Shown: positions 2,969 to 42,796, counted from the first letter of the stretch. The stretch is DNA of 64,000 nucleotides from Lachnospiraceae bacterium (GCA_051888775.1 JBJFCE010000050.1:24879-88878), one strand, 5' to 3'. The notes: a model not told the origin generated them from the sequence alone. Program-made: numbers and translations.

Positions 2969-3146
2969 AACAGTTCAGCCTGAGAAGGAGCCGGAAGGGT
3001 ATGCTTGTGTATCCGGCGGCCCTTTGAAAACGCCGGTACTTAGCGAGGTATTATCGAGCTTAGTACCGCTACATTTGAAACGGAGCGGGAGCGTGCCGCA
3101 GGATACACAAGCATACCCTTCCGGCTCCTTCTCAGGCTGAACTGTT
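2969..3146. repeat. long-hairpin intergenic element E1 (B-type core)
   Basis: Left arm 2969-3014 is the exact reverse complement of right arm 3101-3146 (46/46). The 86-nt core 3015-3100 is related to the E4 and E6 cores. Sits between the GT2 stop (3155) and the pyruvyl transferase start (2949). Flanked by the 7-nt direct repeat ctctttc (2958-2964 and 3148-3154). Confidence 0.9.
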
Positions 3147-3154
3147 ACTCTTTC

Positions 3155-4204
3155 TCAGATTGCGTGGATTTTCTTTAATTGTTTCCACAAAAACAGATAA
3201 ACATCCGGCAGATGCCGAAAACATGAGACCTTGAGCTTATCGCTTCCCGATAGCAACCGGTATGCGCGCCAATAGCTTTCTTTTCCCATTCCTTCGATAG
3301 TCTGTCTGCATGTTTTTATATAACGCTTCTTTTCATCAGATGCGATTCCACGTGCCAATGCCAGTTTTCCTGCCACGAGCATGACCGATACCAGAATCAC
3401 ACGGTGTATGCGGTCGGAAAGCTCCGCTTCCGTGGAACCGATTCTCTTCTCAGCCTCCTGCCAGCAGGTGATCTGATCCATATAGCTTGGTCGAAATGCC
3501 GTCTCCATAGCGCCCTCCGGGTTGTGATAATAGTAATAACCCTGATAGGGCAGATGAACCGTCTTTACATTCTTCTGCATGATCTCCAGCACGAAAAGCA
3601 TATCCTCACCGATCGTTAATCCCTGCCGGAAACGTGTATCTCCGATACTGTCCCGGCTGTACAGCTTACTCCAACAGCGGCTGTCCCCGTCAAAAAGCCG
3701 GTGTTTGATAAATTCGCTGCCGTTTAAAAGCTCTGCCTCTTCATACAGTACACTTTCCTTTTGATTCTGACCGCTATCTGCCGTATTCCCAACAGCACCA
3801 TCTGTCCCCATTGGCTCTTTGAACACATCATAGGTGTCTGTCATAAAAAAATCGCAGCCGGCAACATCACAGCCATTGGTGTGCAGTGCCCGATACAATG
3901 TTTCAATCATCTTAGGACAAATCCGGTCGTCCGCATCTACAAACGTCAGATAGGCACCTGTCGCCTGTTCGATTCCTGCATTTCTTGCACCGGATACTCC
4001 CGTTTTTTCTTCATGGATCACTTTAATTCTGGAGTCCTCAGCTGCCAGTCTGTCAGCGATCTCCCCTGTCCGGTCAGTCGATCCGTTATCTATCACCAGT
4101 ATCTCCAGATCATCATAAGTCTGACAGCAAATGCTTTTCAGACAGCCCTCTAAAAAAGGCTCTGCATGATATGCCGGAACGATCACCGATATTTTTTCCT
4201 TCAA
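3155..4204 (-). CDS. glycosyltransferase family 2
   Basis: ISVIVPAYHAEPFLEGCLKSICCQTYDDLEILVIDNGSTDRT ... TFVDADD: canonical GT-A/GT2 N-terminal domain with a DxD motif. Confidence 0.85.
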   Translation of the reverse strand: MKEKISVIVPAYHAEPFLEGCLKSICCQTYDDLEILVIDNGSTDRTGEIADRLAAEDSRIKVIHEEKTGVSGARNAGIEQATGAYLTFVDADDRICPKMIETLYRALHTNGCDVAGCDFFMTDTYDVFKEPMGTDGAVGNTADSGQNQKESVLYEEAELLNGSEFIKHRLFDGDSRCWSKLYSRDSIGDTRFRQGLTIGEDMLFVLEIMQKNVKTVHLPYQGYYYYHNPEGAMETAFRPSYMDQITCWQEAEKRIGSTEAELSDRIHRVILVSVMLVAGKLALARGIASDEKKRYIKTCRQTIEGMGKESYWRAYRLLSGSDKLKVSCFRHLPDVYLFLWKQLKKIHAI

Positions 4205-4218
4205 TGCCTTTTCCTCCG

Positions 4219-5250
4219 TCAGCTTCTCCTGTCATTCAGATACAACATCCAACGGATCGGTGTGATCAGGATCCGTACCGGATGCTTCATGATCAGATAC
4301 ATCAATTTTCCGTCCATGGATACCGGATGCATTGGATATTCCCGTATCCATGCCTGATTTTCCGGTTCTGCACAGATACCGCGGATCGTTTTGGCACAGG
4401 CTTTCGTATTTCCCCGAAGCTCATTCTTAAATACCAGAAATAGCAGGGATAAATACTCCCTTCGTGCCATTTTTACAGCTTCCGGGATCTCAAATGCATT
4501 TAAAATTTCCAAAATCTTTCGATACAATAATCTGATATTCTCATACAGTCCTGCATTGTATTTATGCACCATGGAAGAACCCACATAGCGGTAGTGATAA
4601 TACAAGCCCTGTTCCACAATAACGATCCTTTCACTTTCAAGAATCGCGGGCAATACAATATTGACATCTTCCCCCATGACCAGCCGTTTATCACAGAACC
4701 TGATATTATCCCGGATCAGCTTCGCCGAAAAAAGCTTCATGCAGCGGGACAGGATCACAAGCCTTCCGTCTTCTCCCACAACATGACACTTGATATCGCG
4801 GTAGAGCTGCTCACCCTCATAGACTCCGGGCGGCATCCTCTGAATGACATTTTCACTGCCGCATTCTTTTTCGATAATATAGTTGCTGCTGATGATCTCC
4901 TTCTGACTGCCCGATACATGGCGCATCAATCCCTCGATCATATCCGGCTCCACCCAGTCATCACTGTCTACATAGCACAGATACTCACCCGCCGCCTCCA
5001 TGGTTCCGGCGATCCATGCACTCATCAGTCCGCCGTTTTCCTTATGGATCACCCGTACCGATTCATGCTCATTTGCATATTGGTCGCACATTGCGGCACT
5101 GCCGTCTTTTGATCCGTCATCCACAAGCAGGATCTCCAGATTCCGATAGGTCTGTGCAAGCAGACTATCCATACATTCCGGAAGATATTGCTCCATATTG
5201 TATACAGGTACGATGATCGTTACTTTCTGCATTCTAATCTCCATTCCCAC
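4219..5250 (-). CDS. glycosyltransferase family 2
   Basis: VTIIVPVYNMEQYLPECMDSLLAQTYRNLEILLVDDGSKDGS ... YVDSDDWV. The start may instead be the internal ATG at 5232 (MQKVTII), which has GGAG upstream. Confidence 0.85.
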   Translation of the reverse strand: MGMEIRMQKVTIIVPVYNMEQYLPECMDSLLAQTYRNLEILLVDDGSKDGSAAMCDQYANEHESVRVIHKENGGLMSAWIAGTMEAAGEYLCYVDSDDWVEPDMIEGLMRHVSGSQKEIISSNYIIEKECGSENVIQRMPPGVYEGEQLYRDIKCHVVGEDGRLVILSRCMKLFSAKLIRDNIRFCDKRLVMGEDVNIVLPAILESERIVIVEQGLYYHYRYVGSSMVHKYNAGLYENIRLLYRKILEILNAFEIPEAVKMARREYLSLLFLVFKNELRGNTKACAKTIRGICAEPENQAWIREYPMHPVSMDGKLMYLIMKHPVRILITPIRWMLYLNDRRS

Positions 5251-5278
5251 GGTAACTTGTCATAAAAATACAGCATCT

Positions 5279-7958: not shown

Positions 7959-7993
7959 TTTCCGAATATCCTCTCAAAAACCGTGTGTCTGCC

Positions 7994-8196
7994 AGGCATT
8001 TGCAAAACTCTGCCCGTGAACCGGAGCCGGTGCTTACCAGCTTGTCGGTAGCGGGCACGCTTTCGCTACACTTCGCCCGTAGCGGTACATAAGGCACCAA
8101 AATACGGTGCCTAAGTACCGACGGACTCACAGTGCCCGCAACCGACAAGCTGGTAAGCACCGGCTCCGGTCCACGGGCAGAGTTTTGCAAATGCCT
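7994..8196. repeat. long-hairpin intergenic element E2 (A-type core)
   Basis: Arms 7994-8058 and 8132-8196 are complementary at 63 of 65 positions. 73-nt core 8059-8131: gctttcgctacacttcgcccgtagcggtacataaggcaccaaaatacggtgcctaagtaccgacggactcaca. Lies between ORF 8207-9844 (stop) and ORF 6768-7958 (start). Confidence 0.9.
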
Positions 8197-8206
8197 TATC
8201 GTACTA

Positions 8207-9844: not shown

Positions 9845-9873
9845 ACTTTTTTACTTTCAGACGCTTCCTGCCG

Positions 9874-11298: not shown

Positions 11299-11350
11299 AC
11301 TACTCTTGTATGCTGTTTATAGAAGCCAAAACACATACTTTCCCTTTCTG

Positions 11351-14442: not shown

Positions 14443-14443
14443 C

Positions 14444-16210: not shown

Positions 16211-16226
16211 AAATCTCCTTCAGCAT

Positions 16227-21431: not shown

Positions 21432-21488
21432 AGTTCCTCCAAGTCATTTCTATTTTAGTCATTTGTAAAGTTCTGTCAGAAGGTGGAT

Positions 21489-21625
21489 CGGTTGCCCACA
21501 GACCTGTCAGCGGTGGGCACGCTTTCGCTACACCTCGTCCGTAACGGTACATAAGGTGCCAAAATACGGCACCTAAGTACCGACGGACTCACAGTACCCA
21601 CCGCTGACAGGTCTGTGGGCAACCG
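21489..21625. repeat. long-hairpin intergenic element E3 (A-type core)
   Basis: Arms 21489-21520 and 21594-21625 are complementary at 31 of 32 positions. Core 21521-21593 differs from the E2 core at 7 of 73 positions. Weak outer pairing (catttg/caaatg, tgtcag/ctgaca) extends to about 21460 and 21654. Confidence 0.85.
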
Positions 21626-21669
21626 CTTGTACTGCTGACAAAATTGCTCAAATGTCCGATTTCCGATAG

Positions 21670-21856
21670 CAGTTCATCCGATGAGGCTTTTGCACGGTAC
21701 GTAAGGATATGTTGTATCCGGCGGTCCTTGAAAAACGCCGGCACTTGGCGAGGTCTTTCCGAGCCTAGTGTCCGCTGCGCTTTTCACGGAGCGAGAGCGT
21801 ACCGCAGGATACAACATATCCTTTCGTACCGTACAAAAGCCTCACCGGATGAACTG
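21670..21856. repeat. long-hairpin intergenic element E4 (B-type core)
   Basis: Arms 21670-21719 and 21807-21856 are complementary at 47 of 50 positions. Core 21720-21806 is related to E1 and E6. The arm tip cagttcatcc resembles the E1 tip cagttcagcc. Confidence 0.9.
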
Positions 21857-21864
21857 TTTCAATT

Positions 21865-25765: not shown

Positions 25766-25824
25766 GCCAAACTCCTTTCCACGGTTTTGTACCGTTCTGT
25801 CTATCCTGATAAAACGTAGCCTTC

Positions 25825-29074: not shown

Positions 29075-30486
29075 TCACAGCTCCTTTTCCAAACTTTCTG
29101 CAGCAATACAAGCCCTGCTACATAAAAGATTGACATATTATAAATCATATACCGCGGCAAACACATGATCGTCAGCCCCGTTGCACAGACATTGGCAGCA
29201 ATCATCACAAGCACCAGTGCCATCATGACGGAAGCGTCCGCATGTCTGCTTCTCTTAAAAAGATACCACATCAAACCGATCGCCACAATATAAATCAGCA
29301 GGGCATACACGGCAAATACCGGATTCAGAACCGCAACCGTCCGGATAAAGCCTCCGCAGATTACATACAGATAAGTCATCAGGAAGTTCCCGACATTCTC
29401 TTTTAACAGACTGATCATATACTGACCTGCCTGCTCATCCATGCAAACCCTGATCTGATCTGCGGTAAGCTCCGAATTCCGCGCCCTCACAGATGCTTCC
29501 AGCTCCGGATACAGAATCTCGAATTTGATCCTGTCATGGCTGTCTTCGTGATACCTGATATTGGCAAGTATCCCTGTCCCTGCATCGGCACTTGTCAGCT
29601 TCTGTTCCTGCATCTGTGCATGGATCTTTAACAGCAGCGCGCCATCTTCCTCCGGCAGACTTTCTGCTGCCTTCCGGATATCTTCTTCGCTTGCGGAATA
29701 GATCACATTGGTCAGAATCGTCATATTGCCGCCTGTATTGCCGCAGCACACACCATACATGACCTCATTGTATTGTTCGATCAGCAGTGACCGGGCACCA
29801 AATGCGCCGAATGTCACCAGTATCACCACAACCACTCCTGCACATTTTTTCCGCCACCCGGATGTATGTCGGCATAATACAATCACGGTAAACAGCATCC
29901 ACAAAAGCAGCATTGGCATCATCTGCCCTCTGGCAAGCGTTGTAAGGAACGCAACAAACAGAGAACACACGGCATAGCGGATCTTTTTTTCCTCCAGACA
30001 CATGTTCAGTATCAGTACAAAAAACAGCTGATACAGCGTCAGTGTAATCCCCTCGCTTAAAATCGCATCTGTCAAGATAATTCCCGAAGGAGTCAGCAAT
30101 CTCGACAGGATATGTGGCACCAATAGTACTGCGATCATTCCCCATTGAAACAGCATATTCAGACGAAACCGTTTACAGATATAATGATACAGATACCATG
30201 TCACGAGAAAAGCAAACAGATTCTGCGTTATGATAACCGCCCACAAATAACCGCTCCCGAACACTGCACGAAACGCCTTTAAGAGAAGCGGATACAGCGG
30301 CTCCCTGTCTATGCTGCCTTCTATATAAGTAACGGAGTCCGGATATTCCCCGACTCCGAAACAGATGCATAAAAAGCAGAAAAAGGCACCAATGACAATA
30401 GGTGCCAAAATCTTCCCATATGAAGTTTTTTTATGGGGACGCATTCCCCGGTTTTCCAAGCTTTGATTCATTCTTTTTTCCCGCAA
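29071..30486 (-). CDS. polytopic membrane protein of unknown function (candidate polymerase or GT-C)
   Basis: 471 aa with many hydrophobic spans. First loop is VGEYPDSVTYIEGSIDREPLYPLL. No family recognised with confidence. Confidence 0.4.
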   Translation of the reverse strand: MREKRMNQSLENRGMRPHKKTSYGKILAPIVIGAFFCFLCICFGVGEYPDSVTYIEGSIDREPLYPLLLKAFRAVFGSGYLWAVIITQNLFAFLVTWYLYHYICKRFRLNMLFQWGMIAVLLVPHILSRLLTPSGIILTDAILSEGITLTLYQLFFVLILNMCLEEKKIRYAVCSLFVAFLTTLARGQMMPMLLLWMLFTVIVLCRHTSGWRKKCAGVVVVILVTFGAFGARSLLIEQYNEVMYGVCCGNTGGNMTILTNVIYSASEEDIRKAAESLPEEDGALLLKIHAQMQEQKLTSADAGTGILANIRYHEDSHDRIKFEILYPELEASVRARNSELTADQIRVCMDEQAGQYMISLLKENVGNFLMTYLYVICGGFIRTVAVLNPVFAVYALLIYIVAIGLMWYLFKRSRHADASVMMALVLVMIAANVCATGLTIMCLPRYMIYNMSIFYVAGLVLLQKVWKRSCE

Positions 30487-30494
30487 ATGCCTCT

Positions 30495-31811
30495 TTATAA
30501 TCTCCAGTACAAATATCCCGCCTGTTCATATGCTTTTCTGTCAAACAGACCCTTGATATCGGACAATACCTTTACCTTATGCTCGGGTGCATACATCTGT
30601 GTGATCTGCTCCATCGTCAGGGCACGGTATGCCTCATGTGCTACTGCCAGAATAACCGCATCCATATTTCGGACGTCGGATAATCCGAACAACCGGATAC
30701 CGTACTCACGCTCTGTTTCCGCACTCTCCGCAACAGGATCCGTGACCACGGGCTCTATTCCGTACTCACGCAGCTCCTTTACAATATCGATCACCTTGCT
30801 GTTTCTCGTATCCGGACAATTCTCTTTAAAGGTAAATCCTAAAATTGCAACCTTTGCATTCTTGACCGAAATATCTGCCTTGATCAGATTTTTGACAAGA
30901 CTCTCCGCAACATATTTCCCCATATCATCATTGATGCGTCTGCCCGATAAGATGATCTGGGAATGATAACCGAGCTGCTCTGCCTTATAGGTCAGATAAT
31001 AGGGATCCACACCGATACAGTGTCCGCCTACCAGACCCGGTTCAAATTTCAAGAAATTCCACTTCGTTCCTGCTGCCTTTAATACCGATTTGGTATCAAT
31101 ACCCATTTTATTAAAGATAATGGACAGCTCATTCATAAACGCAATATTGATATCCCGCTGGCTGTTCTCGATGACCTTGGCTGCCTCGGCTACCTTGATA
31201 GACTCCGCGCGATGCACGCCGGCATCCACCACAAGCTCGTACACCTTTGCAACCTCTTCCAATGTTTCTTCATCCATACCGGATACAATCTTCGTGATCG
31301 TCTCCAGTCTGTGTACCTTATCTCCCGGATTGATACGTTCCGGAGAATAACCGATCTTAAAATCCACACCGCAGGTCAGTCCGGATTCTTTTTCCAGAAT
31401 CGGCACTGCTACTTCCTCTGTCACACCGGGATATACCGTGGATTCAAATACGACAATTGAGCCCTTCGGCAGATTGCGTCCAAGGATCGTACTTGCCCCC
31501 TCAATCGGGGAAAGATCCGGAGTATGATCGGGATTGACCGGAGTCGGTACTGCCACGATAAAGAATTTTGCTTCCCGAAGCTTGCTTTCATCTGCAGTAA
31601 ATTCTACGCTGCAAGATTTGATCGCTTCATCTCCGACCTCACAGGTCGGGTCAATTCCGCTTTGATATTTCTCGATTTTTGCCTTATTCAAGTCAAATCC
31701 GATCACCTTGACTTTTTTTGAAAAAGCAACCGCAATCGGCATCCCGACATAGCCGAGCCCTACCAATGCGATCTTTTCTTCTCCGTTTACAATCTTCTCG
31801 TACAGACTCAT
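30495..31811 (-). CDS. UDP-N-acetyl-hexosamine 6-dehydrogenase (WbpO/TviB/Cap5O-like)
   Basis: KIALVGLGYVGMPIAVAF Rossmann motif and catalytic-Cys block LVGGHCIGVDPYYL. 438 aa. Confidence 0.8.
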   Translation of the reverse strand: MSLYEKIVNGEEKIALVGLGYVGMPIAVAFSKKVKVIGFDLNKAKIEKYQSGIDPTCEVGDEAIKSCSVEFTADESKLREAKFFIVAVPTPVNPDHTPDLSPIEGASTILGRNLPKGSIVVFESTVYPGVTEEVAVPILEKESGLTCGVDFKIGYSPERINPGDKVHRLETITKIVSGMDEETLEEVAKVYELVVDAGVHRAESIKVAEAAKVIENSQRDINIAFMNELSIIFNKMGIDTKSVLKAAGTKWNFLKFEPGLVGGHCIGVDPYYLTYKAEQLGYHSQIILSGRRINDDMGKYVAESLVKNLIKADISVKNAKVAILGFTFKENCPDTRNSKVIDIVKELREYGIEPVVTDPVAESAETEREYGIRLFGLSDVRNMDAVILAVAHEAYRALTMEQITQMYAPEHKVKVLSDIKGLFDRKAYEQAGYLYWRL

Positions 31812-31829
31812 TTCTATTCCTCCCGTATT

Positions 31830-32963
31830 TTACTCTGCCAGAATCCTCTCAAGCTCCGCCAGATATGTGTCTACAACAATCTTTCTGTCAAATTCCCGTT
31901 CCATTTTCTCTCTTGCCGCAAGCCCCATCTGCTTACGCTGTTCATAGGGCATTGCCAGAAACTGCCGAACCGCCCGAATCAGATCCGCACTGTCCTGCTC
32001 TTTTATCAAAAGTCCGGTCTTACCGTCCTCAATAGTATCCCGGCATCCGGGTCTGTCCGTGGTGATCACGGGACGACCGCTTGCCGCACTTTCCAGACAT
32101 ACATTAGACATTCCCTCCGGGTAAAAAGACGGATGCACCGTGCACTGGCTTTTCTGCAAAAACGGCTTAATATCCTCAAGCATTCCTTCAAAGGTAAGAA
32201 CACCTTTTTCCTCCAGCCCGCGGATCCTGTTTCGATAGGAATCCGGTTCACTGTCATCATCCTCGCAAAAGCCAAGGATATGGAACTCTGTCTCCGGATA
32301 CTCTTTCTTGATCACTTCTGCCATTTCCATGAACTGGTCAATCCCCTTTTCCTTCATGACACGGGAAATAAACAGCATGGAAATCGGAGCATCCTCTGGG
32401 GGATATTCCAGATACCGAAACCGTTCCAGATTGACACCGGAGCCGGGGATCCTTTTATGCCTGCCCGGTGCGATCTTCTGTTCGGTAAAAAACGCTTCAT
32501 TCGTCTCGTTTTGGAAAAACAGGCATGAGACACCGCGCATTGCATGTCGGTACATCCGAACCGTCAGTTTTTGCAAAAGCCCGTCTCCTTCCACCGCAGT
32601 CCCAAGCCCGGTAATATTCGTAATGTATGGGATCTTTTTTGAAGCCAGTATGGAGCCTGCATAAATATTGGGCTTGATCGTATAGGTCAGCGCTACATCA
32701 GGCTGCACCTCTTTGATAATCTCACGATAGCGACGGATCAACTGTAACTCATGAAATGGGTTCATCCCACGCCGCTCCAGTCTGGTTTCATGGAAAATAC
32801 AGCCCATTTCTACAAGCTTTGGTATGAATTCTCCGTCCGGCAGTGCGATATGCACCTCATACGGCACCTTTAACAGCGCTTCTAACAGCTCCCGTCTGAA
32901 ATTGTAAAGTCCTACATCCAGATTGGCAAGGATCAATAGCTTCTTCATAACTCCTATCCTCAC
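31830..32963 (-). CDS. glycosyltransferase family 4 (PglA/WbuB-like)
   Basis: KKLLILANLDVGLYNFRRELLEALL...PSFYPEGMSNVCLESAASGRPVITTDRPGCRDTI. The start may be ATG 32948. Confidence 0.8.
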   Translation of the reverse strand: MRIGVMKKLLILANLDVGLYNFRRELLEALLKVPYEVHIALPDGEFIPKLVEMGCIFHETRLERRGMNPFHELQLIRRYREIIKEVQPDVALTYTIKPNIYAGSILASKKIPYITNITGLGTAVEGDGLLQKLTVRMYRHAMRGVSCLFFQNETNEAFFTEQKIAPGRHKRIPGSGVNLERFRYLEYPPEDAPISMLFISRVMKEKGIDQFMEMAEVIKKEYPETEFHILGFCEDDDSEPDSYRNRIRGLEEKGVLTFEGMLEDIKPFLQKSQCTVHPSFYPEGMSNVCLESAASGRPVITTDRPGCRDTIEDGKTGLLIKEQDSADLIRAVRQFLAMPYEQRKQMGLAAREKMEREFDRKIVVDTYLAELERILAE

Positions 32964-34036
32964 GCATCCCCGGCAGGTGCCAGATCTCGGTATGCCGGGA
33001 AAAATCCTGTCTCTTTCCTGCCGTTATTTAACTCCCACAGGCGGTTGTAGACCGGCTCATTGACGATCATTCTGCCGATGGAAAACCGACAGTCCTCCTG
33101 TCTGTTAAACTGTTTCTTAAAACTGTATAAATGATCCATACGGCTTCCGAGGCCACCGCCGAGATGGAATGTCTTCATTCCGATATTGCAGCCAAAGCAT
33201 GCCGCTTCATAAAGGATCAGATTGGTCGGCGCATAGCTCTGATACTCCCGTTTGGATGCCGACAGATGATAATGCATCGCACCATTTCCGAACATGACGA
33301 TCGACATGGCAATGATCTCGTCATGAAGCTTTGCATAAAAAACAAGCGCCTGCTCCTTTAAGTCGTTTAAAATACTGTCATAGAATTCTTTTTTAAAATA
33401 ATAATAGCTATCCGCACCGACTTTATCCATCGTTGCGTTATAAATCTTCTCAAACTCCGCAAACAGCGACGGCTCCCTGCCCCAATAGACAGCCACACCG
33501 GATTTTTGTGCCTTGCGGATCATATTGCGGTTTTTGCTCGACAGATTCGCCCAGATCGTCTCTTTGGACGAAACATCCATACACACGGTATTCCCGAGAT
33601 CAATCACTTCATACAGGCATTCCATATCATGTGCATTGTCGATCACCGGATGATAGCGGTTAAACTCCGCTACGATTTTATGATCCCTGCAAAAATCACG
33701 GTATGCATGTGCCAACGCTTCCTTCTCAGCCTCAGAAGTGTCTCCCTGCAGCAAAAAACCGCCGTAGCCGTAGGGCGTAACAAAATCGCTGTATCCCTTA
33801 AGCTCTTCATCCTCCGGGCGCTCAACGGTAAGTACGGGTACCGGACGCTTCATCACGATGTTCATCGCCTGCATCCGCTCACCCGGATAGTATAACAATA
33901 GCGGCTCTCCGTCTCCGTTTACCTGAAATGCTTTCACATAGCCCGGAGTAAAATAGACATCATGCTGCGGGAACTGCGCAAGTACCCGGTTCCACTCTTC
34001 TTCCTTTGTCAGATCGATGATCCTGATTCCAGTCAT
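32960..34036 (-). CDS. FemAB-family (peptidoglycan-bridge-type) transferase homolog, copy 2
   Basis: 358 aa. DVYFTPGYVKAF...SSKNRNMIRKAQKSGV...HYHLSASKREYQSYAPTNLILYEAACFG...FHLGGGLG...LYSFKKQFN: full-length FemX/FemAB-like architecture. Confidence 0.6.
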   Translation of the reverse strand: MTGIRIIDLTKEEEWNRVLAQFPQHDVYFTPGYVKAFQVNGDGEPLLLYYPGERMQAMNIVMKRPVPVLTVERPEDEELKGYSDFVTPYGYGGFLLQGDTSEAEKEALAHAYRDFCRDHKIVAEFNRYHPVIDNAHDMECLYEVIDLGNTVCMDVSSKETIWANLSSKNRNMIRKAQKSGVAVYWGREPSLFAEFEKIYNATMDKVGADSYYYFKKEFYDSILNDLKEQALVFYAKLHDEIIAMSIVMFGNGAMHYHLSASKREYQSYAPTNLILYEAACFGCNIGMKTFHLGGGLGSRMDHLYSFKKQFNRQEDCRFSIGRMIVNEPVYNRLWELNNGRKETGFFPAYRDLAPAGDA

Positions 34037-34066
34037 AAGGCTTCCTTCCCTACTTTTCCATGTGAG

Positions 34067-34140
34067 TTTCTGCTTTATCTGCCCTGCTTTGCCGCATGGA
34101 TTTCTGGTTTATCTTCCCTGCTTTGCCGCACGGATTTCTG
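34067..34140. repeat. 34-bp tandem direct repeat (2 copies plus 6 nt) spanning a gene's 3' end
   Basis: 34067-34100 (tttctgctttatctgccctgctttgccgcatgga) and 34101-34134 (tttctggtttatcttccctgctttgccgcacgga) are identical at 31 of 34 positions. 34135-34140 repeats tttctg. Copy 2 contains the last codons and the stop of ORF 34109-34735. Confidence 0.9.
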
Positions 34141-34735
34141 CCAGATTTCCTTCAATATCATCCGTGACCTCCGCCACTTCATCGCTTTTTCCGAATACGA
34201 CTTTTACGGTCATCCAAAGCACCTTAACATCCATGGCAAAGCTCAAATGCTCCACATATTCCACGTCCTTTTCCAGACGTTTATCCCATTCAATGTAATT
34301 CCTGCCGCTCACCTGTGCAAGTCCGGTCAGTCCCGGACGCACTGTATGGCGCAGCTTCTCACGCTCCGTATACCACGGCAGATAACTGACTAACAGAGGG
34401 CGCGGTCCGATCAGACTCATATCGCCTTTAAAAATGTTCCAAAGCTCCGGCAGTTCATCCAGACTGGTCTTTCTGAGAAACAGACCAAACTTCGTCAGAC
34501 GCTCACTGTCCGGCAAAAGCTCCCCGTTCTCATCCCTTGCATCCGTCATGGTACGGAACTTGCAAAGCGTAAAGATCTTCTCATGATAGCCCGGTCTCTT
34601 CTGATGAAAGATCACCGGACTTCCAAGTTTCACGCGCACCAGTACCGCTACAATCAGATAGACGGGGCTTAAAATCAGCATGCCGAAAAGTGATATGAAA
34701 ATGTCAAGCAGGCGTTTGATACAATGTTGGTACAT
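34109..34735 (-). CDS. PglC/WcfS-type small monotopic phosphoglycosyl transferase
   Basis: 208 aa. KRLLDIFISLFGMLILSPVYLIVAVLV...KFRTM...LDELPELWNIFKGDMSLIGPRP...PGLTGLAQVSGRN. Confidence 0.85.
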   Translation of the reverse strand: MYQHCIKRLLDIFISLFGMLILSPVYLIVAVLVRVKLGSPVIFHQKRPGYHEKIFTLCKFRTMTDARDENGELLPDSERLTKFGLFLRKTSLDELPELWNIFKGDMSLIGPRPLLVSYLPWYTEREKLRHTVRPGLTGLAQVSGRNYIEWDKRLEKDVEYVEHLSFAMDVKVLWMTVKVVFGKSDEVAEVTDDIEGNLAEIRAAKQGR

Positions 34736-34765
34736 GGTAGATCCTTTCGTGTTGGTTTACGGAAC

Positions 34766-34918
34766 GGGATGGCCGGCAGGGCAGATGGTTTTAGGTGTAA
34801 GACACGCTCTCGCTCAGTTTCAAACGCAGCGGTACATAAGGCAGTAAAATACACTGCCTAAGTACCGGCGTTTTCAAATGGTCTTACACCCAAAACCATC
34901 TGTCCTGCCGGCCATCCC
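34766..34918. repeat. long-hairpin intergenic element E5 (A-like core)
   Basis: Arms 34766-34803 and 34881-34918 are complementary at 36 of 38 positions. Core 34804-34880 contains ...cgctcagtttcaaacgcagcggtacataaggcagtaaaatacactgcctaagtaccggcgttttcaaatg. Confidence 0.9.
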
Positions 34919-35019
34919 TGCTCGTTCTGATCCTGCATGCGAAATGCCATGTGTTTACAAATAATATTTCTGCACATGATGTTTCACTGTCTGCAATATG
35001 GTTGTTGGCAGTTTGCCCC

Positions 35020-35274
35020 GTGTCCGGTCAAGGCGGGTTCACAGCGGATGCGATCATTCGTTCTATAGGGCTTACGGATGGTATGCGATGGTATCTTGTG
35101 TCTGGAGGTCCTTGAAAAACGCCGGCACTTAGCGAGGTATTTTCGAGCTTAGTGTCCGTTGCGTTTTTCACGGAGTGAGAACGTGCCGACAGACACATGA
35201 TACCATCACATACCATCCGCAAGCTCTATAGAACGAATGATCGCATCTGCTGCGAACCTGTCTTGACCGGACAC
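35020..35274. repeat. long-hairpin intergenic element E6 (B-type core, longest arms)
   Basis: Arms 35020-35104 and 35190-35274 are complementary at about 77 of 85 positions. Core 35105-35189 is related to E1 and E4. Confidence 0.9.
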
Positions 35275-35295
35275 ACCTGAGACAGCCTCATTTTC

Positions 35296-36438
35296 CTACT
35301 GAAACATCTCCCGGATCAGTCCGATGATCAGCTCCATATCCTCCGGTGTATTCTTGATATCGCTGGGTAAGCACACACCACGCCGGAAGATCTCCTCAGA
35401 AACGCTTTCCTTCCCTCCGTCATGTGTGAAGAAATCGTAACCTTCAAACACCGGCTGCAGATGCATCGGTTTCCAGATCGGTCTGCTTTCAATATTGTAT
35501 TCTGCCAGACAATCCATAAGTGCATCGGGTGTCACATTGCTTTTTTCATCAATCGTAATACAGGACAGCCAGTTATTGGCAACACCGTCCGGATTCATCG
35601 GATTCATCCGAATCTGCGGGATATCTGCAAAAGCTTCCTCATACTGCCTATAAATCGCCTGTTTTTTTGCAATATGCTCATCCAGATGCAACAACTGTCC
35701 TCTGCCGATTCCGGCTGTAATGTTGCTCATACGATAATTATACCCGATTTGGGAATGCTGATAATATCTTGCCGGATCTCTTGCCTGCGTGGACAGGAAT
35801 CTTGCCTTTTTAATTGCTTCTTCATCATCGGATACCAGCATGCCGCCACCCGAAGTCGTAATGATCTTATTTCCGTTAAAGGAATAAATGCCGAATCTGC
35901 CAAAGGTTCCCGTCTGTCTTCCCTTATACGTCGCACCGAGTGCCTCTGCCGCATCTTCGATATAAGGAACTCCATGTTCCGCACAGATTGCTCTCAGTTC
36001 ATCGATCTTTCCCGGCGTTCCGTATAAATACACAGAAACCACTGCTTTGGCCTGCGGATATTTTTCAAATGCACGTCTGAGCGCCTCCGGAGACATGTTC
36101 CAGGTATCCGGTTCACAATCAATAAAGACCGGAACTGCCTTTTCATAGACAATCGGATTACAGGTCGCCGAAAAGGTCAGACTTGATGCAAATACAATAT
36201 CTCCTTCTTTGATCCCTGCAAGCTTTAACGCCAGGTGGATCGCTGCCGTTCCGGCACTCAGGGCTGCTCCGTATCCAGCTCCCGTATACGCACACATTTC
36301 TTTTTCCAGCGCATCTACGTTCGGTCCGAGAGGAGCCACCCAGTTGGTATCAAATGCCTCCTGCACAAACCTCTGCTCGTCACCATGCATCGTAGGACTG
36401 GATAAATAAATTCTCTTTCTGTCCATATTCGTCTCCAT
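35296..36438 (-). CDS. DegT/DnrJ/EryC1-family sugar aminotransferase (PglE/WcfR/EpsN-like)
   Basis: IYLSSPTMHGDEQRFVQEAFDTNWVAPLGPNV... and the PLP-lysine block YSFNGNKIITTSGGGMLV. The start may be ATG 36426. Confidence 0.8.
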   Translation of the reverse strand: METNMDRKRIYLSSPTMHGDEQRFVQEAFDTNWVAPLGPNVDALEKEMCAYTGAGYGAALSAGTAAIHLALKLAGIKEGDIVFASSLTFSATCNPIVYEKAVPVFIDCEPDTWNMSPEALRRAFEKYPQAKAVVSVYLYGTPGKIDELRAICAEHGVPYIEDAAEALGATYKGRQTGTFGRFGIYSFNGNKIITTSGGGMLVSDDEEAIKKARFLSTQARDPARYYQHSQIGYNYRMSNITAGIGRGQLLHLDEHIAKKQAIYRQYEEAFADIPQIRMNPMNPDGVANNWLSCITIDEKSNVTPDALMDCLAEYNIESRPIWKPMHLQPVFEGYDFFTHDGGKESVSEEIFRRGVCLPSDIKNTPEDMELIIGLIREMFQ

Positions 36439-36462
36439 TCCGATCAGCGTGATTTCTCACGA

Positions 36463-38352
36463 CTACATCTCCTGCTCATGCTTTGCCAATGCTTCTTTCG
36501 GATTATAAGTCGGTACGATTTCCCGTACAATCTCCTTAATACGGGCATCCTCATGGTTCGCAGCCGACTTTAGATCCCGAAGCTGTCTGAAGAAGGTCAT
36601 TTCATCGATATCGATCGGTCTTCCGATATGGATCAGCTTATTGGCCGTATCCGTCATGCCCTCCTCATTCATCAAAAGCTCTTCATATAATTTTTCACCG
36701 GGACGAAGCCCCGTAAACACGATCTTGATATCTTCATCCACTTTATAGCCGGACAGACGGATCAGATTCTTTGCCAGATCCAGAATCTTGACCGGTTCTC
36801 CCATATCCAGAATAAAGATCTCGCCGCCCTTGGCATAGGCCCCCGCCTGAAGAACCAGTGACACCGCTTCCTGAATCGTCATAAAATAGCGGATAATATC
36901 GGGATGCGTGACCGTAACGGGACCGCCCGCCTCGATCTGCTTACGAAACAGCGGAATCACACTTCCGTTGCTTCCGAGAACATTTCCGAAACGCACTGCA
37001 ACAAATTCCGTATCATAATGACGGTTAAAGGTCTGGATGATCATTTCACAGATTCTCTTTGTTGCACCCATAATATTGGTCGGATTGACTGCTTTATCCG
37101 TAGAAATCATAACGAACTTCTTAACACCGTTCATTGCCGCTGCCTGCGCAGTCTTCCATGTACCGAACACATTATTCTTGACTGCCTCGTTCGGACTTTC
37201 CTCCATGAGCGGTACATGCTTATGGGCTGCCGCATGGTAAACAATATCCGGATGATACGTTTCAAAAATACTGTTCATACGGCTCGTATTACGTATCGAA
37301 CCGATCAGCACGACCAGATTCAGCCTCGGATACTTTGCCAAAAGCTCCTGCTGGATATCATAGGCGCTATTTTCATAGATATCAAAAATGATCAGCTGTG
37401 CCGGCTGATGCGTGGCAATCTGACGACACAACTCGCTGCCGATGGAACCGCCGCCGCCCGTGACCAGTACGACTTTGCCCTTCACATAGTTTAAGATAGA
37501 GTCCAGATCAACCTTGATCGGTTCTCTGCCGAGCAGATCTTCCACGTCCACATCACGGATCTTGCTGACATTGACTTCTCCGTTGACAAGCTGATACATA
37601 CCGGGAAGCGTGCGGAGCTTACAGTCCGTCTCTTTGCAGATATTAATCAGATCACGGATGATGTATTTCGGTACGGAAGGAAGGGCAATGATAATCTCAT
37701 CAATCTGATATTTTTTTGCCGCTTCAATGATCCGGTCACGTCCTCCGACTACCTTGATACCCTGCACATATCTGCCCCATTTATTCTTATCATCATCAAT
37801 GACACATTTGATGCTCATCGTAGAATAATGGCTGCCGATGATTTCCTTCATGATGACGTTTCCTGCATCACCGGCACCAATGATCATCACCGCAGTTCCA
37901 TTTTTACTGTTGCTTCTTCTGTGCTTTGCTTCCCTCAAAAAACGATAGGAAAAACGGCTCAATAATGTCAACGCGAATAACACGAGCAGGAAAATAAAAT
38001 AATAACTCCTCGGTACATAGCGCCCCGTAAAATGCAGTCCGACACACTGGATCAGTGCACTGACGCAGCAGGCTGCCGCCATATTCTGCATCTCCGTCAC
38101 ACCTGCATAGGCCCAAAGGCTGTGATACAGCCGAAACAGATAAAATACCAGAATCGTCAAAAGAATTCCAAACGGCAGAAACCATTTGACATTATCGACA
38201 AATAATTGCGGAATCGCATCAATCCGAAATTCATATCGCATGATAAGCGGAATATAACTTGCCAATACAACCGCAATCATATCATATACGATCAAAAACG
38301 CTCTCCGTATAATCAGCTTTGTATTTAAAATCTTTTTCTCTACCTGATTCAT
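36463..38352 (-). CDS. membrane-anchored UDP-HexNAc 4,6-dehydratase (CapD/PglF/WbpM family)
   Basis: 629 aa. N-terminal hydrophobic spans, then IIGAGDAGNVI and VLVTGGGGSIGSELCRQI Rossmann motifs. Confidence 0.8.
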   Translation of the reverse strand: MNQVEKKILNTKLIIRRAFLIVYDMIAVVLASYIPLIMRYEFRIDAIPQLFVDNVKWFLPFGILLTILVFYLFRLYHSLWAYAGVTEMQNMAAACCVSALIQCVGLHFTGRYVPRSYYFIFLLVLFALTLLSRFSYRFLREAKHRRSNSKNGTAVMIIGAGDAGNVIMKEIIGSHYSTMSIKCVIDDDKNKWGRYVQGIKVVGGRDRIIEAAKKYQIDEIIIALPSVPKYIIRDLINICKETDCKLRTLPGMYQLVNGEVNVSKIRDVDVEDLLGREPIKVDLDSILNYVKGKVVLVTGGGGSIGSELCRQIATHQPAQLIIFDIYENSAYDIQQELLAKYPRLNLVVLIGSIRNTSRMNSIFETYHPDIVYHAAAHKHVPLMEESPNEAVKNNVFGTWKTAQAAAMNGVKKFVMISTDKAVNPTNIMGATKRICEMIIQTFNRHYDTEFVAVRFGNVLGSNGSVIPLFRKQIEAGGPVTVTHPDIIRYFMTIQEAVSLVLQAGAYAKGGEIFILDMGEPVKILDLAKNLIRLSGYKVDEDIKIVFTGLRPGEKLYEELLMNEEGMTDTANKLIHIGRPIDIDEMTFFRQLRDLKSAANHEDARIKEIVREIVPTYNPKEALAKHEQEM

Positions 38353-38424
38353 ATTTACACCTGTTTTAGTCCATTTATTACAACTGTCCGTATTCCGCTT
38401 TCTTTTTCCGAAATACCCGACTTA

Positions 38425-41115
38425 TTATTTTACCACATTTTTATCCATTCGCATAGTAATTAGTAAAAACAGATATGCAAATCCAAGCGGCATATTCGGA
38501 TTTCCCGTGTATTCCGAAATACTCGTAATGAGATATGCCGCAGAGATCATTAAAGAAAGATACATGGCTTCACTCCTGTCCTGCCCCTTCCATATCAGGA
38601 TCACCGAGCGCATGATCACAAGCAGGCACAGCCCCAGTGACAACATTCCCGTCAGGATACCGAAATCGTATGCCATCTGGATAAAGGTATTATGCGAATG
38701 TGCGATCTGCGTCCCGTCCTCATGTATCAGAACCATACTGTCATGTCCCGTCCAGTTCAAATCTTTCAGGTACATTTTAAAAATGCCGATTCTGCCATTT
38801 GACATTTCATTAATCTTGGAAGGCTGTACTGCCTGCTCCTGCACATCAACCTGATCGGCTGATGTAAGCAGCTGTACTTCTTCCTGCACCAGCCCGATCT
38901 CCGAACCGTCCGTACTGCCGGATGCCAGATCCCCCAATGGCTGCATATCCATCTGCTGCGGTTTGGCAAGTGCATCATCCGCAAACGGTCTTACCATAAA
39001 CTCAGGCAGTCCGAATCTGTCTCCCAAAAGGCGCATCAATGCCTTAAAATTCATATATTTATAAGAATCCGGCGCATCTCCCTTTTTAACAGCTTCCTTG
39101 AAATCCTCCAATTCGGCAACCATATAACGCGGTTCATTGACAACCGCAGGGATACAGCGTGTTGCCGTATAGCACACCGGAACACTTAAGACTACCATCA
39201 ATATCAGGCTCCCAAATACACGGATATACTGTTTCCAGGACAAATGCTCCGTAACAATTGCCGCAATCAACAGAATTGCCAAAATTCCGCATACTCCCAT
39301 CAAGGTTGTTCTGGCAGCCGTAAATATAATATAAGCAGTCACCACGCCGTAACAGACCCACTCCTTCATACAACCGCAAAAGACGCTTCTCATCTTACGC
39401 ATCCGCATATACAGCCGGACAATAGCAACCGTTTCGACAAGTATCAGATACATTCCCGTACTTGCCACAGTATGAAACCACATCGGATAGCGATTAAACT
39501 GATAATACTCATACGGTCTGTATAAGAGACACAATATCAGAATCAATCCGAAATTCACCAACACGGCATTTTCGAAATTTCTGATCACTCTGCGGCATCC
39601 CTGATCAGAATCATACTGCAAAAAGAATAACGTAAATGTTACTGCCATCATAAACGGCCAGCGCTTTCCGTGAGATGCCAGAATCATCCCGATACACATC
39701 AAAAGCCAGATAACAGCAACCGGAAGATTGACCTTACGAAGCTTCTTATCATTCCATGTACGGATCGTTTTTGCCAGAATCACACCCCAAACAAATACCG
39801 CCACCATAAAAACTGCTCCGACCTGTATTCCATGATCCTCCCCTGCATGCAGATAGCAATAAACCATGCCCGCAGGAATCATAAAAAGTCCCCACACCAG
39901 CGTAACTATGTTAAACAAATCACGCGCACGGTAAGATACTGCAATAGCCAAACCGAACAGCAGCAATACCCAGTTTCCGTTCAGGTCCTGTTTCCACTGC
40001 ACAGAAGAATTCACATACATAATTCCCGCATAAAGTAACAGCACAAGAGACAAGGTCTGCAGATAATTCTGCCACATCAAAACATCGGTATACTTATCCA
40101 GTTCCTCACGCATTGCGGATACTTTCCTCTTGCGTACTTTATTTTTTCCGGATACAGATATCCGCACCGTATCATTTTGCTTCCACGCCCTTTGCACGAA
40201 TAAAGCGCCGCCTGCTCCCAGAATCAGACATGACACCGCATACACACCGATATCCAGTGCCATTCCTCCAAACATGCGAGTAATGCACAACTGATAGAAT
40301 GCAAAAATGAGCCCCAGCCCATAAATTGCCGCACCCAAGATCAGCAGGCACCTTTTCAGTACACGCTTTTTCTCAGAGGAAAGCGCAGCAATCAGATGCA
40401 TGATCCATACTGCTGCCACATATCCGGCAACTCCGGCTATCAGAATCCCGATCGTACAAAGCACACGCAGACCATCGGAAAACGGCTCGCTATAGCGAAA
40501 TTCCATCAAAACAGCCTGTCCCTGTGTTAATATCCCCGCATACGTAAAGGACTCAAGTTCCGGAACTTTCAGTTCCTCCAGATTACCGTAAACAGCCGTC
40601 AAAACTCCTTCGCTGTCAAAATGAGTGTTAACGCCGACATAATAGATCTGTCCCGGTACCACATCCAACTGCGGACTGACCGAAATACAGCCCATCGCTT
40701 CAATATCGCTGAAGTAGACAACCTCCTGCCAGATCATATCAAATGCATCATTATAAATTGTTACAAATACCCGGTCCTGCTCATGCACTCCGTCAACACG
40801 CACTGCCATTACCATATCTGCAATATGGTAATCTGCCGGAACAAAAGGCTGAAGCACGATCTCATCCATCGTCACAGCTCCTGTTTCTGCCGTAACAATA
40901 CCTTCCCGGTATGTCGAAGTATGGGAATGTTCAAAAACACGAAAAGGCCATACCATCAAAAGAAGGATGACCACCATCGTAACAATACAGATCTGTGCAA
41001 TTGTATTTCGTTTTAATGCGCCTTTCGCGGACACATGACTATGCGTCTTTCTTTGGCTGGAATGTTGAATCTCCATAGATACCCCGTTCTGATTCCGAAG
41101 CGTTCTCTCCGACAC
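38425..41115 (-). CDS. 896-aa O-antigen-ligase-family (WaaL/PglL motif) polytopic membrane protein
   Basis: Many membrane spans. Near the C-terminus, HSHNTFIQMAYDFGILTG fits the ligase motif H[NSQ]x9Gxx[GTY]. An acidic, Q-rich, low-complexity loop precedes it. The ORF-track start overlaps the upstream gene by 77 nt; the real start is probably an internal ATG. Confidence 0.6.
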   Translation of the reverse strand: MSERTLRNQNGVSMEIQHSSQRKTHSHVSAKGALKRNTIAQICIVTMVVILLLMVWPFRVFEHSHTSTYREGIVTAETGAVTMDEIVLQPFVPADYHIADMVMAVRVDGVHEQDRVFVTIYNDAFDMIWQEVVYFSDIEAMGCISVSPQLDVVPGQIYYVGVNTHFDSEGVLTAVYGNLEELKVPELESFTYAGILTQGQAVLMEFRYSEPFSDGLRVLCTIGILIAGVAGYVAAVWIMHLIAALSSEKKRVLKRCLLILGAAIYGLGLIFAFYQLCITRMFGGMALDIGVYAVSCLILGAGGALFVQRAWKQNDTVRISVSGKNKVRKRKVSAMREELDKYTDVLMWQNYLQTLSLVLLLYAGIMYVNSSVQWKQDLNGNWVLLLFGLAIAVSYRARDLFNIVTLVWGLFMIPAGMVYCYLHAGEDHGIQVGAVFMVAVFVWGVILAKTIRTWNDKKLRKVNLPVAVIWLLMCIGMILASHGKRWPFMMAVTFTLFFLQYDSDQGCRRVIRNFENAVLVNFGLILILCLLYRPYEYYQFNRYPMWFHTVASTGMYLILVETVAIVRLYMRMRKMRSVFCGCMKEWVCYGVVTAYIIFTAARTTLMGVCGILAILLIAAIVTEHLSWKQYIRVFGSLILMVVLSVPVCYTATRCIPAVVNEPRYMVAELEDFKEAVKKGDAPDSYKYMNFKALMRLLGDRFGLPEFMVRPFADDALAKPQQMDMQPLGDLASGSTDGSEIGLVQEEVQLLTSADQVDVQEQAVQPSKINEMSNGRIGIFKMYLKDLNWTGHDSMVLIHEDGTQIAHSHNTFIQMAYDFGILTGMLSLGLCLLVIMRSVILIWKGQDRSEAMYLSLMISAAYLITSISEYTGNPNMPLGFAYLFLLITMRMDKNVVK

Positions 41116-42025
41116 GCTCCCTTACTACAAATTGCGGAGAACGATTCATACTGATATACATTCTGCCGATATATTCTCCGATCATGCCAAGCATAAGCAT
41201 GATCATGCCGCCGATAAATACCAGTGCGGACATCATGGCACTAAATCCGATCGGCACATCGGGATTGACAAATTTCTTGATCACGGTATAGATTCCGTAT
41301 AGAAAACCGCATGCTGCGGTGATACAGCCCAATACCGTTGCAATTCTGAGCGGCTTGATCGAAAATGCCGTGAAACCGTTAAACCAAAGCGCCAGAAGCT
41401 TCTTCATCGTATATCCGGATGTTCCGATCTCTCTTTCCCGGTGTGTGACATCCACATTGATAATGTTTTTGGTTGCCCGCAGTACCAGCCCTATCACATA
41501 GGGATAGGAATGCTCGTACTGAAGCATGTTATCCACGACAAAACGCCTTGCCGCAAAATAACTCGAAACATACAGATCCTTCGGTTTTCCAAGCATTACC
41601 CTCGTCATCCAGTCATTTACCCTGCTTCCGAAATTACGGAATGCAGAATGCTTTTTATTAGTATAGCGGGCATACACAACATCACTGCCCCCACGAATCC
41701 CGTCAAGCAATTTCCCGACTTCATTTGCCGGTGTCTGTCCGTCGTCATCCAGACATACTATAACATCGCCGCTCACTTCATGAAATCCCGCCATCAGTGC
41801 CGCATGCTGCCCAAAATTTCTGGCCAGATTGACTCCTGTCACATTGGGATTCTCCGAAGCAATCCTGCGGATTGTCTCAAAAGTATCATCCGTTGAACAG
41901 TCATTGACCAGAATCAGCTCATAACTGTATTCCGGCATAGTTGCCATGGTCTCCTTGATCTCCGCTACCACCCCGGGCAGCGTCTGTGCCGAACGATAGC
42001 ACGGTATCACAAAACTTACTTTCAT
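41039..42025 (-). CDS. polyprenyl-phosphate glycosyltransferase (ArnC/GtrB/CsbB-like GT2)
   Basis: VSFVIPCYRSAQTL...LILVNDCSTDDT...VCLDDDGQTP, plus two C-terminal hydrophobic helices: the architecture of Und-P-sugar synthases. Confidence 0.75.
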   Translation of the reverse strand: MKVSFVIPCYRSAQTLPGVVAEIKETMATMPEYSYELILVNDCSTDDTFETIRRIASENPNVTGVNLARNFGQHAALMAGFHEVSGDVIVCLDDDGQTPANEVGKLLDGIRGGSDVVYARYTNKKHSAFRNFGSRVNDWMTRVMLGKPKDLYVSSYFAARRFVVDNMLQYEHSYPYVIGLVLRATKNIINVDVTHREREIGTSGYTMKKLLALWFNGFTAFSIKPLRIATVLGCITAACGFLYGIYTVIKKFVNPDVPIGFSAMMSALVFIGGMIMLMLGMIGEYIGRMYISMNRSPQFVVRERVGENASESERGIYGDSTFQPKKDA

Positions 42026-42567
42026 ATGTTCCTCCGTTCCTTTGGATTGATCATTCCCATAAAGATCACATCCTGAAACTGTCCATCCAAATATACATCA
42101 TCACAAAATCTGCCTTCCTCGACAAATCCTGCTTTTTCATAGCTTCTTTTTGCTCTCGGATTATTGGCAAGTACCCGCAGCATGATCCGGTGAAGCTTTA
42201 ACTCCTCAAAGGCATACTGCACGGCAAGATGCGCCGCCTCCGTGCCGATCCCAATCCCGAGCGCCTCCTTCACACCGATGAAAATGCCATATTCCGCCTT
42301 CCGGTGCTCTCTGTCGATATCCCGAAAATAAACGCTTCCGACCGGTGTATCATCTTTTTTCAGACAAATCACAAACTGCACAACGTGCCCCGGCACGATC
42401 TGTGTCCGAATCCACTCCAAATGCCCCTCTCCGGTAAATGGTCTGCGGTAAATAAAATTCTCCCTGACAAAATCTTCATTACGCCATGACACAATAAGAT
42501 CTGTATCTTCCTGTGTCATCAGCCTTAAATAGACTTTTTCGCCTTCCAATTTATCTTTTTGCTCCAT
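42022..42567 (-). CDS. GNAT N-acetyltransferase (RimJ/RimL-like)
   Basis: 181 aa. LRLMTQEDTDLIVSWRNEDFVRENF...GIGIGTEAAHLAVQYAFEELKLHRIMLRVLANNPRAKRSYEKAGF. AAGGAG upstream of the ATG. Confidence 0.75.
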   Translation of the reverse strand: MEQKDKLEGEKVYLRLMTQEDTDLIVSWRNEDFVRENFIYRRPFTGEGHLEWIRTQIVPGHVVQFVICLKKDDTPVGSVYFRDIDREHRKAEYGIFIGVKEALGIGIGTEAAHLAVQYAFEELKLHRIMLRVLANNPRAKRSYEKAGFVEEGRFCDDVYLDGQFQDVIFMGMINPKERRNI

Positions 42568-42597
42568 ATTATCTCCTTAATTTAACCAGCCGCCATA

Positions 42598-42796
42598 GGT
42601 GCTTGTGAAGCTTTGCCGGCAGGGCGGTACGGGAATCCAACACCTGTCAGCTGCGGGCACTGTGAGTCCGTCGGTACTTAGGCACCGTATTTTGGTGCCT
42701 TATGTACCGCTACGGACGAAGTGTAGCGAAAGCGTGCCCGCAGCTGACAGGTATTGGATTCCCGTACCGCCCTGCCGGCAAAGTTTCGCAAGCACC
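42598..42796. repeat. long-hairpin intergenic element E7 (A-type core, inverted relative to E2/E3)
   Basis: Arms 42598-42660 and 42734-42796 are complementary at 60 of 63 positions. The reverse complement of core 42661-42733 differs from the E2 core at 1 of 73 positions. Confidence 0.9.

Follow-up and report, generated by a model that had tools for sequence, protein, structure and literature searches.

What are the seven long hairpins that lie between the genes of a glycan locus in a Lachnospiraceae bacterium? We analyzed a 64,000-nucleotide stretch of this genome (GCA_051888775.1, JBJFCE010000050.1:24879-88878; hereafter, the window). An initial annotation, made from the sequence alone, had noticed seven intergenic elements there, E1 to E7, each with a conserved core between long self-complementary arms. 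It offered four explanations: a non-autonomous mobile element, a structured RNA, a joint between exchanged gene cassettes, and an invertible switch. We conclude that the elements most probably belong to a family of miniature inverted-repeat transposable elements (MITEs), which has spread through the Lachnospiraceae, and that their centre can flip and their arms have repeatedly been made self-complementary.

An inverted-repeat scan of the window recovered all seven hairpins at the coordinates first reported, and its sole further match was a weak 26-nt pair at 59394-59588. The arm lengths and mismatches were reproduced when we recomputed them (Table 1), as was the near-identity of three 73-nt cores: there is 1 difference between E2 and the reverse complement of E7, and there are 7 between E2 and E3. 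The weaker pairing of E3 extends to 21460/21654 (61 nt at 80%). Copies are imperfect palindromes of 150-255 nt; the elements measure 153-255 nt, and no real gene lies inside any of the seven. Using nhmmer with a seven-copy model, we found 7/7 copies (E-values between 1e-37 and 8e-48) and none beyond these in the 64 kb. All of the folds that we tested are much more stable than those of shuffled sequences (z-scores of -6.6 to -9.3). Also as claimed, the elements occupy the five largest intergenic gaps (560, 433, 248, 242, and 205 nt; the next largest is 133 nt). Each lies after a stop codon and before the following ribosome-binding site, and both are left intact.

The initial annotation found that the arms of different copies can be aligned beside the core and at the tips but not elsewhere. 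This is correct, but the similarity of the tips is not accidental: the elements end in conserved terminal inverted repeats, and at least two kinds of these exist. Type-B ends read GTAACAGTTCAGCC and type-A ends read YAGGnnATTGCGAAAC, while in roughly half of the 136 copies the ends are different or degenerate. A metagenome scan identified seven near-identical copies of a whole element (GTAACAGTTCAGCC...core...GGCTGAACTGTTAC) in one assembly family (L125, L129-L133, and L135; L numbers are our identifiers for loci). The copy in L132 is cut off by the contig end. The six full-length copies are each in a different context, and each is flanked by an 8-bp duplication, with 8, 8, 8, 7, 7, and 6 of the 8 positions matching (for instance, CGAAACAT/CGAAACAT, GAATACAT/GAATACAT, and GTATGATA/GTATGATA). 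Other type-B duplications are found in L003 (8/8) and L059 (6/8), and the duplication around E1 is 7/8 identical (GAGAAAGA / GTAACAG...CTGTTGC / GGGAAAGA). In total, the type-B target-site duplication is exactly 8 bp in 9 copies, E1 included. Type-A elements have direct repeats of 9-11 bp, in 7 copies. Given two types of ends with different duplication lengths, two transposition systems appear to move one core.

The ends also give some indication of which enzymes might be involved. ISDge4, from the ISBst12 group of the IS66 family of insertion sequences (IS), has the end GTAACTGCTCAGCA and an 8-bp duplication (PMC12898284), and ends in the IS66 family start with GTAA and give 8-bp repeats (PMC11946415). 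Type-B elements likewise begin with GTAA and have an 8-bp duplication, and their end is identical to ISDge4's at 11 of 14 positions. Unlike members of the IS66 family, the elements in the window are non-coding. The ends of the ISAs1 family are 14-22 bp, start with CAGGG, and are associated with a 10-bp duplication (PMC11946415). Type-A ends start with YAGGN (CAGGC, CAGGA, TAGGC, and others) and their duplications are 9-11 bp, which is no more than a resemblance to that family. We looked for an autonomous partner near the mate-less terminal repeats in L047 and L097, in a 4.5-kb interval of L139, and in 120 viral loci that contain the 14-mer, and found only housekeeping or phage genes.

Some elements with type-B ends have no core at all. 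These mini-elements are 48-484 nt long and are bounded by GTAACAGTTCAGCC ends, each with an 8-bp duplication. They are present in L139 (317-395 and 4745-4793), L047 (2743-2815), L004, L090, and the viral loci L201, L202, L242, and L255. The smallest consists of two ends around a 13-nt loop.

To see how widely the family occurs, we scanned a collection with one genome per species for a degenerate pattern of the core. The pattern is present in at least 114 genome contigs, nearly all from Lachnospiraceae; one match is from a viral contig. Among the matches listed, nhmmer found 123 cores in 115 loci, and the carriers include Blautia, Butyrivibrio, Acetatifactor, Eisenbergiella, Kineothrix, Lacrimispora, and Mediterraneibacter. 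Again among the matches listed, the neighbouring genes are diverse (histidine kinases, ABC transporters, and purine-biosynthesis genes, for example), a search for a recurrent neighbour returned only generic families, and the orientation of the core relative to the flanking genes is near random (41 same/same, 31 opposite/opposite, and 32 mixed). The family is not specific to glycan loci and is mostly found outside them. With blastn, the core had no match in plasmid and phage records. Literature searches with motif strings gave only listings of 16S rRNA and unrelated primers, and a keyword search for such repeats in Lachnospiraceae gave nothing relevant. The family is absent from Rfam, and we found no description of it.

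Comparison with related genomes shows filled and empty sites. Starting from homologs of the window's DegT protein, we reached syntenic loci in a related species (L118-L122), whose DegT is 88% identical. (The window's DegT open reading frame had been read as 380 amino acids, and the true start is 4 codons downstream.) The two genes that flank E7 are just 10 nt apart in L122 and L119, so that site is empty. Similarly, the DegT and transferase genes that flank E5 and E6 are 26 nt apart in L122, which is empty as well; in L119 they are 130 nt apart, and the extra ~100 nt does not contain a core. Conversely, the related species carries a single element in the CapD-DegT interval, which is 24 nt long in the window. 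Because this is a comparison between species, the exact borders of excision or insertion cannot be read. Together, the terminal inverted repeats, the duplications, the near-identical copies, and the filled versus empty sites support the proposal of a non-autonomous, hairpin-type mobile element.

The extra ~100 nt in L119 (11129-11257, as compared to 11129-11154 in L122) includes an end-like sequence, GTTTCGCAT. This DNA is similar to the E6-E5 spacer (window 34919-35019) and may be the remnant of an element.

The arms of the elements in the window are unusual for the family. The initial annotation described them as specific to each copy, which is true in this genome but not generally, since copies within one genome elsewhere share arms. 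Outside the core, a typical element has four parts: a terminal repeat (16 nt), an asymmetric bubble (~20 nt), an inner stem (~25 bp), and an ACGC/GCTTA internal loop. Among the matches listed, the median gapless arm is ~25 bp, and arms of 48 bp or more occur in only 9 of the 123 copies outside the window. Arm pairing is at its most extreme in the window itself: E2 and E7 are paired along their whole length, and E3 has an unpaired middle.

A second strain, represented by L123, provides the most telling comparison of the arms. Its DegT is 98% identical to the window's, and its E5 is also 98% identical (3 of 153 nt differ). Between L123 and the window, identity is 97-100% in the flanks, throughout E5, in the core of E6, and in the inner 22 nt of E6's arms. 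In contrast, the outer ~60 nt of both arms of E6 are only ~60% identical, without insertions or deletions. Despite these differences between the strains, the arms of E6 are self-complementary within each of them. We infer that an ancestral imperfect palindrome at E6 was made symmetric independently in the two lineages. We also considered adenine-specific mutagenesis, as in diversity-generating retroelements, as a source of the changes in E6's arms, but the differences between the strains include all types of substitutions, which rules this out.

These observations suggest the following mechanism. DDE transposases encoded elsewhere would move the elements in trans, with type B probably being moved by an IS66-family enzyme of the ISBst12 group and type A perhaps by an ISAs1-like enzyme. 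One arm would repeatedly be copied onto the other, either by template switching within the element or by arm-to-arm gene conversion. This copying would remove the asymmetric bubble and the internal loop of typical members and would give rise to the long, near-perfect, and copy-specific arms of this genome. The same recombination between the arms would flip the core. Within long glycan operons, each copy would fold into an RNA duplex of 46-85 bp, possibly with a side effect on processing or stability.

The core is the part of the element that is most conserved, and it is genuinely constrained. It is ~75 nt long and central, and it is not a loop: the hairpin continues through it. Three features make the core asymmetric: a one-sided bulge of 11 nt (ACGCTYYCGCT), a second bulge of two bases, and an apical stem-loop that is conserved and reads GGTAC-A-TAAGG...AAAATAC...CCTAAGTACC or, in a variant, has TC/TC internal loops. 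In 120 of 121 copies, the opposite strand of the bulge reads AGC-GNRA-GCG. The GNRA is GAAA in 60 copies, GAGA in 44, GGGA in 11, GGAA in 4, and GCAA in 1, and in 2 copies the closing pair is U-A instead of C-G. This pattern, which is difficult to dismiss, is what a constrained tetraloop leaves in single-stranded RNA or DNA. Given this signature, as well as the invariant bases of the loop and the bulge, the core is under purifying selection for something, which could be a site for a transposition cofactor, a site for a host factor, or an RNA activity.

We also noticed some smaller features of the cores. A 12-mer from the other strand of the bulge, AGCGAAAGCGTG, which concerns the cores of all seven elements (window 8060-8071, for example), also occurs in 16S rRNA of bacteria, probably by coincidence, through a GC-GAAA-GC mini-hairpin. 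A 59-nt mini-core, with just the bulge motif and the apical hairpin, is nested within the apical hairpin of another core in L139 (~8039-8200) and L140 (~4647-4778). A similar mini-core lies off-centre in a 242-nt type-B element in L128 (3971-4212), which has the 8-bp duplication AATAATTT.

Several points weigh against the view that these are MITEs whose arms are repeatedly copied. We found no transposase with these ends, whether in the window, in 140 loci, in 120 viral loci, or beside any terminal repeat that we examined, so the assignment to IS families is a lead and not a demonstration; the suggested links to IS66 and to ISAs1 are based on the end sequence and the duplication length. In the window, only E1 has kept a recognizable duplication, and 6 of the 7 copies have none left. 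The arm-copying step is read back from end states, and the arms might instead have been replaced by gene conversion from other copies in the genome. Furthermore, a core that spans genera, with two types of ends and two duplication lengths, is not expected for ordinary MITEs, which indicates a function beyond that of an ordinary MITE. Finally, 8 of 9 close pairs of elements are convergent, which neither random insertion nor free flipping predicts.

The nine independent cases are of cores less than 500 nt apart, with convergence judged by the CACGCT strand. The convergent pairs are at 21460-21860 and 34766-35274 in the window and in L008, L065, L110, L071, L017, and L088, and the only non-convergent pair is a partial hit in L093. 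If the chance is 1/4 per pair, then at least 8 of 9 being convergent has a probability of ~1e-4. In L065 and L017, the members of the pair are near-identical inverted copies.

If the core does have a function of its own, it might be a functional single-stranded module, with a three-way junction capped by the GNRA loop, in RNA or in extruded DNA. Such a module could have been captured by two transposition systems, or it might build MITEs by itself, and its flipping in place, with the fixed convergence of pairs, would then control modules of long glycan operons according to orientation. In the self-building route, the core would make the adjacent DNA palindromic, and the end of a neighbouring IS would be copied across to give matched terminal repeats. 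We consider this scenario to be unlikely.

A structured RNA might instead be the primary identity of the family, with mobility being secondary. The elements would then act in cis within polycistronic glycan mRNAs, or would be small RNA genes, and the duplex would be cut by RNase III or would stabilize or terminate transcripts. The GNRA tetraloop on one strand, the stability of the folds, and the placement between stop codons and ribosome-binding sites without disrupting either are all consistent with this. So is the pairing of the core: 77.9% of cells are paired, versus 59.5% in shuffled controls and no more than 43% after sliding the partners. Covariation scores 0.455 versus 0.169, and 32 of 37 pairs have changes on both sides. 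However, repeated symmetrizing of a palindrome, by copying from arm to arm, can yield covariation mechanically, so the covariation may not require any selection on structure. The stems have equal counts of G-U and A-C (220 versus 215), and as measured by folding energy, one strand is favoured 46 times and the other 66, so that neither is consistently better. These results disfavour the folding of one particular strand. Also, the elements have no preferred orientation relative to the flanking genes and are not tied to any class of gene, and consensus scans across E3-E6 found no consistent sigma-70 promoter or intrinsic terminator. (In type-B cores, runs of A and T around the upper stem resemble a two-way terminator; type-A cores lack such runs.) As the initial annotation had supposed, the core is not a named RNA family: Rfam gave no match at gathering thresholds over the 64 kb, the sensitive mode with E up to 10 gave only a chance match outside of the cores, and five other loci gave none with E up to 1. 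Lastly, the target-site duplications mark the copies as products of transposition. The GNRA loop and the covariation speak for the RNA hypothesis, but the seemingly random gene orientation and the lack of strand asymmetry in wobble pairs argue against a cis-acting RNA as the primary identity, which we view as rather unlikely; a structured RNA may be a secondary role. Separately, we considered a hammerhead (CUGUGAG versus CUGANGA) and rejected it by eye; Rfam had no match to one.

The orientation of the core raises another alternative. Between CapD and DegT, a segment with the 79-nt core and ~10 nt of each inner arm is inverted between genomes: the segment in L119, L118, L120, and L127, which are four independent assemblies, is the exact reverse complement of the segment in L122. 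In L119 versus L122, the outer parts and the flanking genes are colinear, and the asymmetries at the junctions move with the core. This is a true inversion of DNA, seen between genomes rather than within one population. The crossover must lie in the symmetric part of the arms.

Invertons are invertible promoter segments between inverted repeats, such as those in Bacteroides capsule loci or at cwpV and flgB in Clostridioides difficile. The elements could be programmed switches of this kind if a recombinase encoded elsewhere flips the core and so turns downstream glycan modules on or off. Like invertons, they have an asymmetric segment between inverted repeats, which is found in both orientations at one locus as well as across the window, and they lie in a surface-glycan locus, a kind of locus that phase variation classically affects. 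The fixed mutual orientation of adjacent pairs (8 of 9) also fits. On the other hand, there is no recombinase in the 64 kb, we found no promoter and no orientation-dependent consensus for a promoter or terminator, and the segment is only ~75-100 nt. The arms, which would be the sites of recombination, are not conserved between copies, and the elements transpose. Most members of the family adjoin unrelated housekeeping genes. In 12 canonical type-A copies from several genomes, the orientation of the core is constant relative to the asymmetric outer parts, and E5 and E6 have the same orientation in the second strain as in the window. Close inverted repeats also recombine passively. So, the proposed invertible switch survives in that the core has been inverted between genomes at one locus, but there is no evidence for a recombinase, for an orientation-dependent promoter or terminator, or for switching within a population. 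We think that programmed switching is quite improbable.

Hairpin elements can also be moved as single-stranded DNA by HUH (Y1) transposases, as with the palindrome-associated elements of IS200/IS605 or the repetitive extragenic palindromic (REP) sequences, which occur in pairs, known as REPINs, that are moved by RAYT transposases. Like REPINs, the elements are long hairpins whose halves are kept complementary and that are dispersed in intergenic DNA, in both orientations; they also have a conserved bulged stem-loop, and GCGAAAGC is a very stable DNA mini-hairpin. But the 8-bp and 9-11-bp duplications, which bound true terminal inverted repeats, contradict this mechanism: REPINs have neither, and to our knowledge, elements that are mobilized by HUH enzymes do not make them. 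There is also no GTAG-type REP motif and we found no Y1 transposase nearby, which makes this mechanism highly improbable. Last, that the elements are joints left by the exchange of glycan gene cassettes is hardly credible: some are at module boundaries, such as ahead of an initiating sugar transferase, but gene order is unchanged across the E5/E6 and E7 sites in the related species, which lacks the elements there, and most of the family is outside of glycan loci.

If the elements are MITEs, as we believe, then their basic nature is ordinary. Bacterial MITEs that form long RNA hairpins in operons are a known kind, such as Correia/NEMIS in Neisseria, ERIC in enterobacteria, YPAL in Yersinia, and RUP in pneumococcus. 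Like them, the elements are non-coding palindromic repeats of 100-250 nt with terminal inverted repeats and target duplications. They are likewise intergenic, often inside transcription units, in both orientations, with many copies, and polymorphic for presence or absence. Unlike in those families, the centre is the most conserved part, not the ends; one centre is found with at least two unrelated types of ends and with two duplication lengths; in this genome each copy has arms of its own, and at one site the strains have different arms; and the hosts are Lachnospiraceae.

The window itself is one large polysaccharide-biosynthesis locus, with nearly all of it on the minus strand. Its products include GT2, GT4, and GtrII-like transferases, two initiating sugar transferases, two asparagine-synthase paralogs, a NeuB/CMP-sugar module, and two ABC exporters. 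Among its 48 main open reading frames, Pfam identified no transposase, recombinase, or reverse transcriptase, which agrees with the initial annotation. The module at 48747-52985 (NeuB, cytidylyltransferase, aminotransferase, and dehydratase) suggests the synthesis of a nonulosonic (sialic-acid-like) sugar. Because of this module, the four GtrII-like proteins, the two asparagine-synthase paralogs, and the two ABC exporters, the locus looks like several glycan pathways joined end to end. A lone GT4 glycosyltransferase gene (18408-19532) is on the plus strand, and the 133-nt divergent gap ahead of it could hold promoters. Beside E1, the pyruvyl-transferase gene has its ATG at 2949.

Short-read (Logan) contigs from SRR30616799 are 100% identical to the window and come from the same strain: L116 corresponds to 24109-35135 and L117 to 35159-42609. 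These contigs end inside E4, E6, and E7, which indicates that the elements break short-read assemblies.

Table 1. Elements in the window and the duplications around E1. Strand is the one on which the element is forward, that is, reads CACGCTYYCGCT. Arms are given as base pairs/mismatches, over the extents first reported.
Feature	Coordinates	Strand	Type and ends	Core	Arms	Remarks
E1	2967..3148	-	type B, probable MITE copy; GTAACAGTTCAGCC...GGCTGAACTGTTGC	3021-3094	46/0	
E1 target-site duplication, upstream copy	3149..3156	-	GAGAAAGA			overlaps stop codon of upstream GT2 gene
E1 target-site duplication, downstream copy	2959..2966	-	GGGAAAGA			in ribosome-binding region of pyruvyl-transferase gene
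E2	7994..8196	+	type A; (C)AGGCATTTGCAAAAC	8059-8131	65/2	arms fully symmetrized; no recognizable target-site duplication
E3	21460..21654	+	type-A-like	21521-21593	32/1 (inner arms)	outer arms keep an unpaired, asymmetric stretch (left arm versus reverse complement of right arm)
E4	21666..21860	-	type B, degenerate; GAAACAGTTCATCC...GGATGAACTGCTAT	21726-21800	50/3	convergent with E3; target-site duplication no longer recognizable (3/8 matching)
E5	34766..34918	+	terminal repeat of neither main type	34804-34880	38/2	
E6	35020..35274	-		35105-35189	85/8	convergent with E5
E7	42598..42796	-	type A; GGTGCTTGCGAAAC	42661-42733	63/3	

Lachnospiraceae are dominant gut bacteria whose mobile DNA is poorly catalogued. 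This family has practical and biological consequences: it breaks assemblies, it places 46-85-bp duplexes in surface-glycan operons, and it marks sites of rapid change between strains. It is unusual in that one structurally constrained centre is found with two types of ends and two duplication lengths, and in that the centre flips in place. The arms of E6, which differ between two strains and yet are self-complementary in both, offer a natural system for studying how bacterial palindromes are perfected and maintained. If the core acts on transcripts, then it would add a portable regulator to the variation of glycans in gut commensals.

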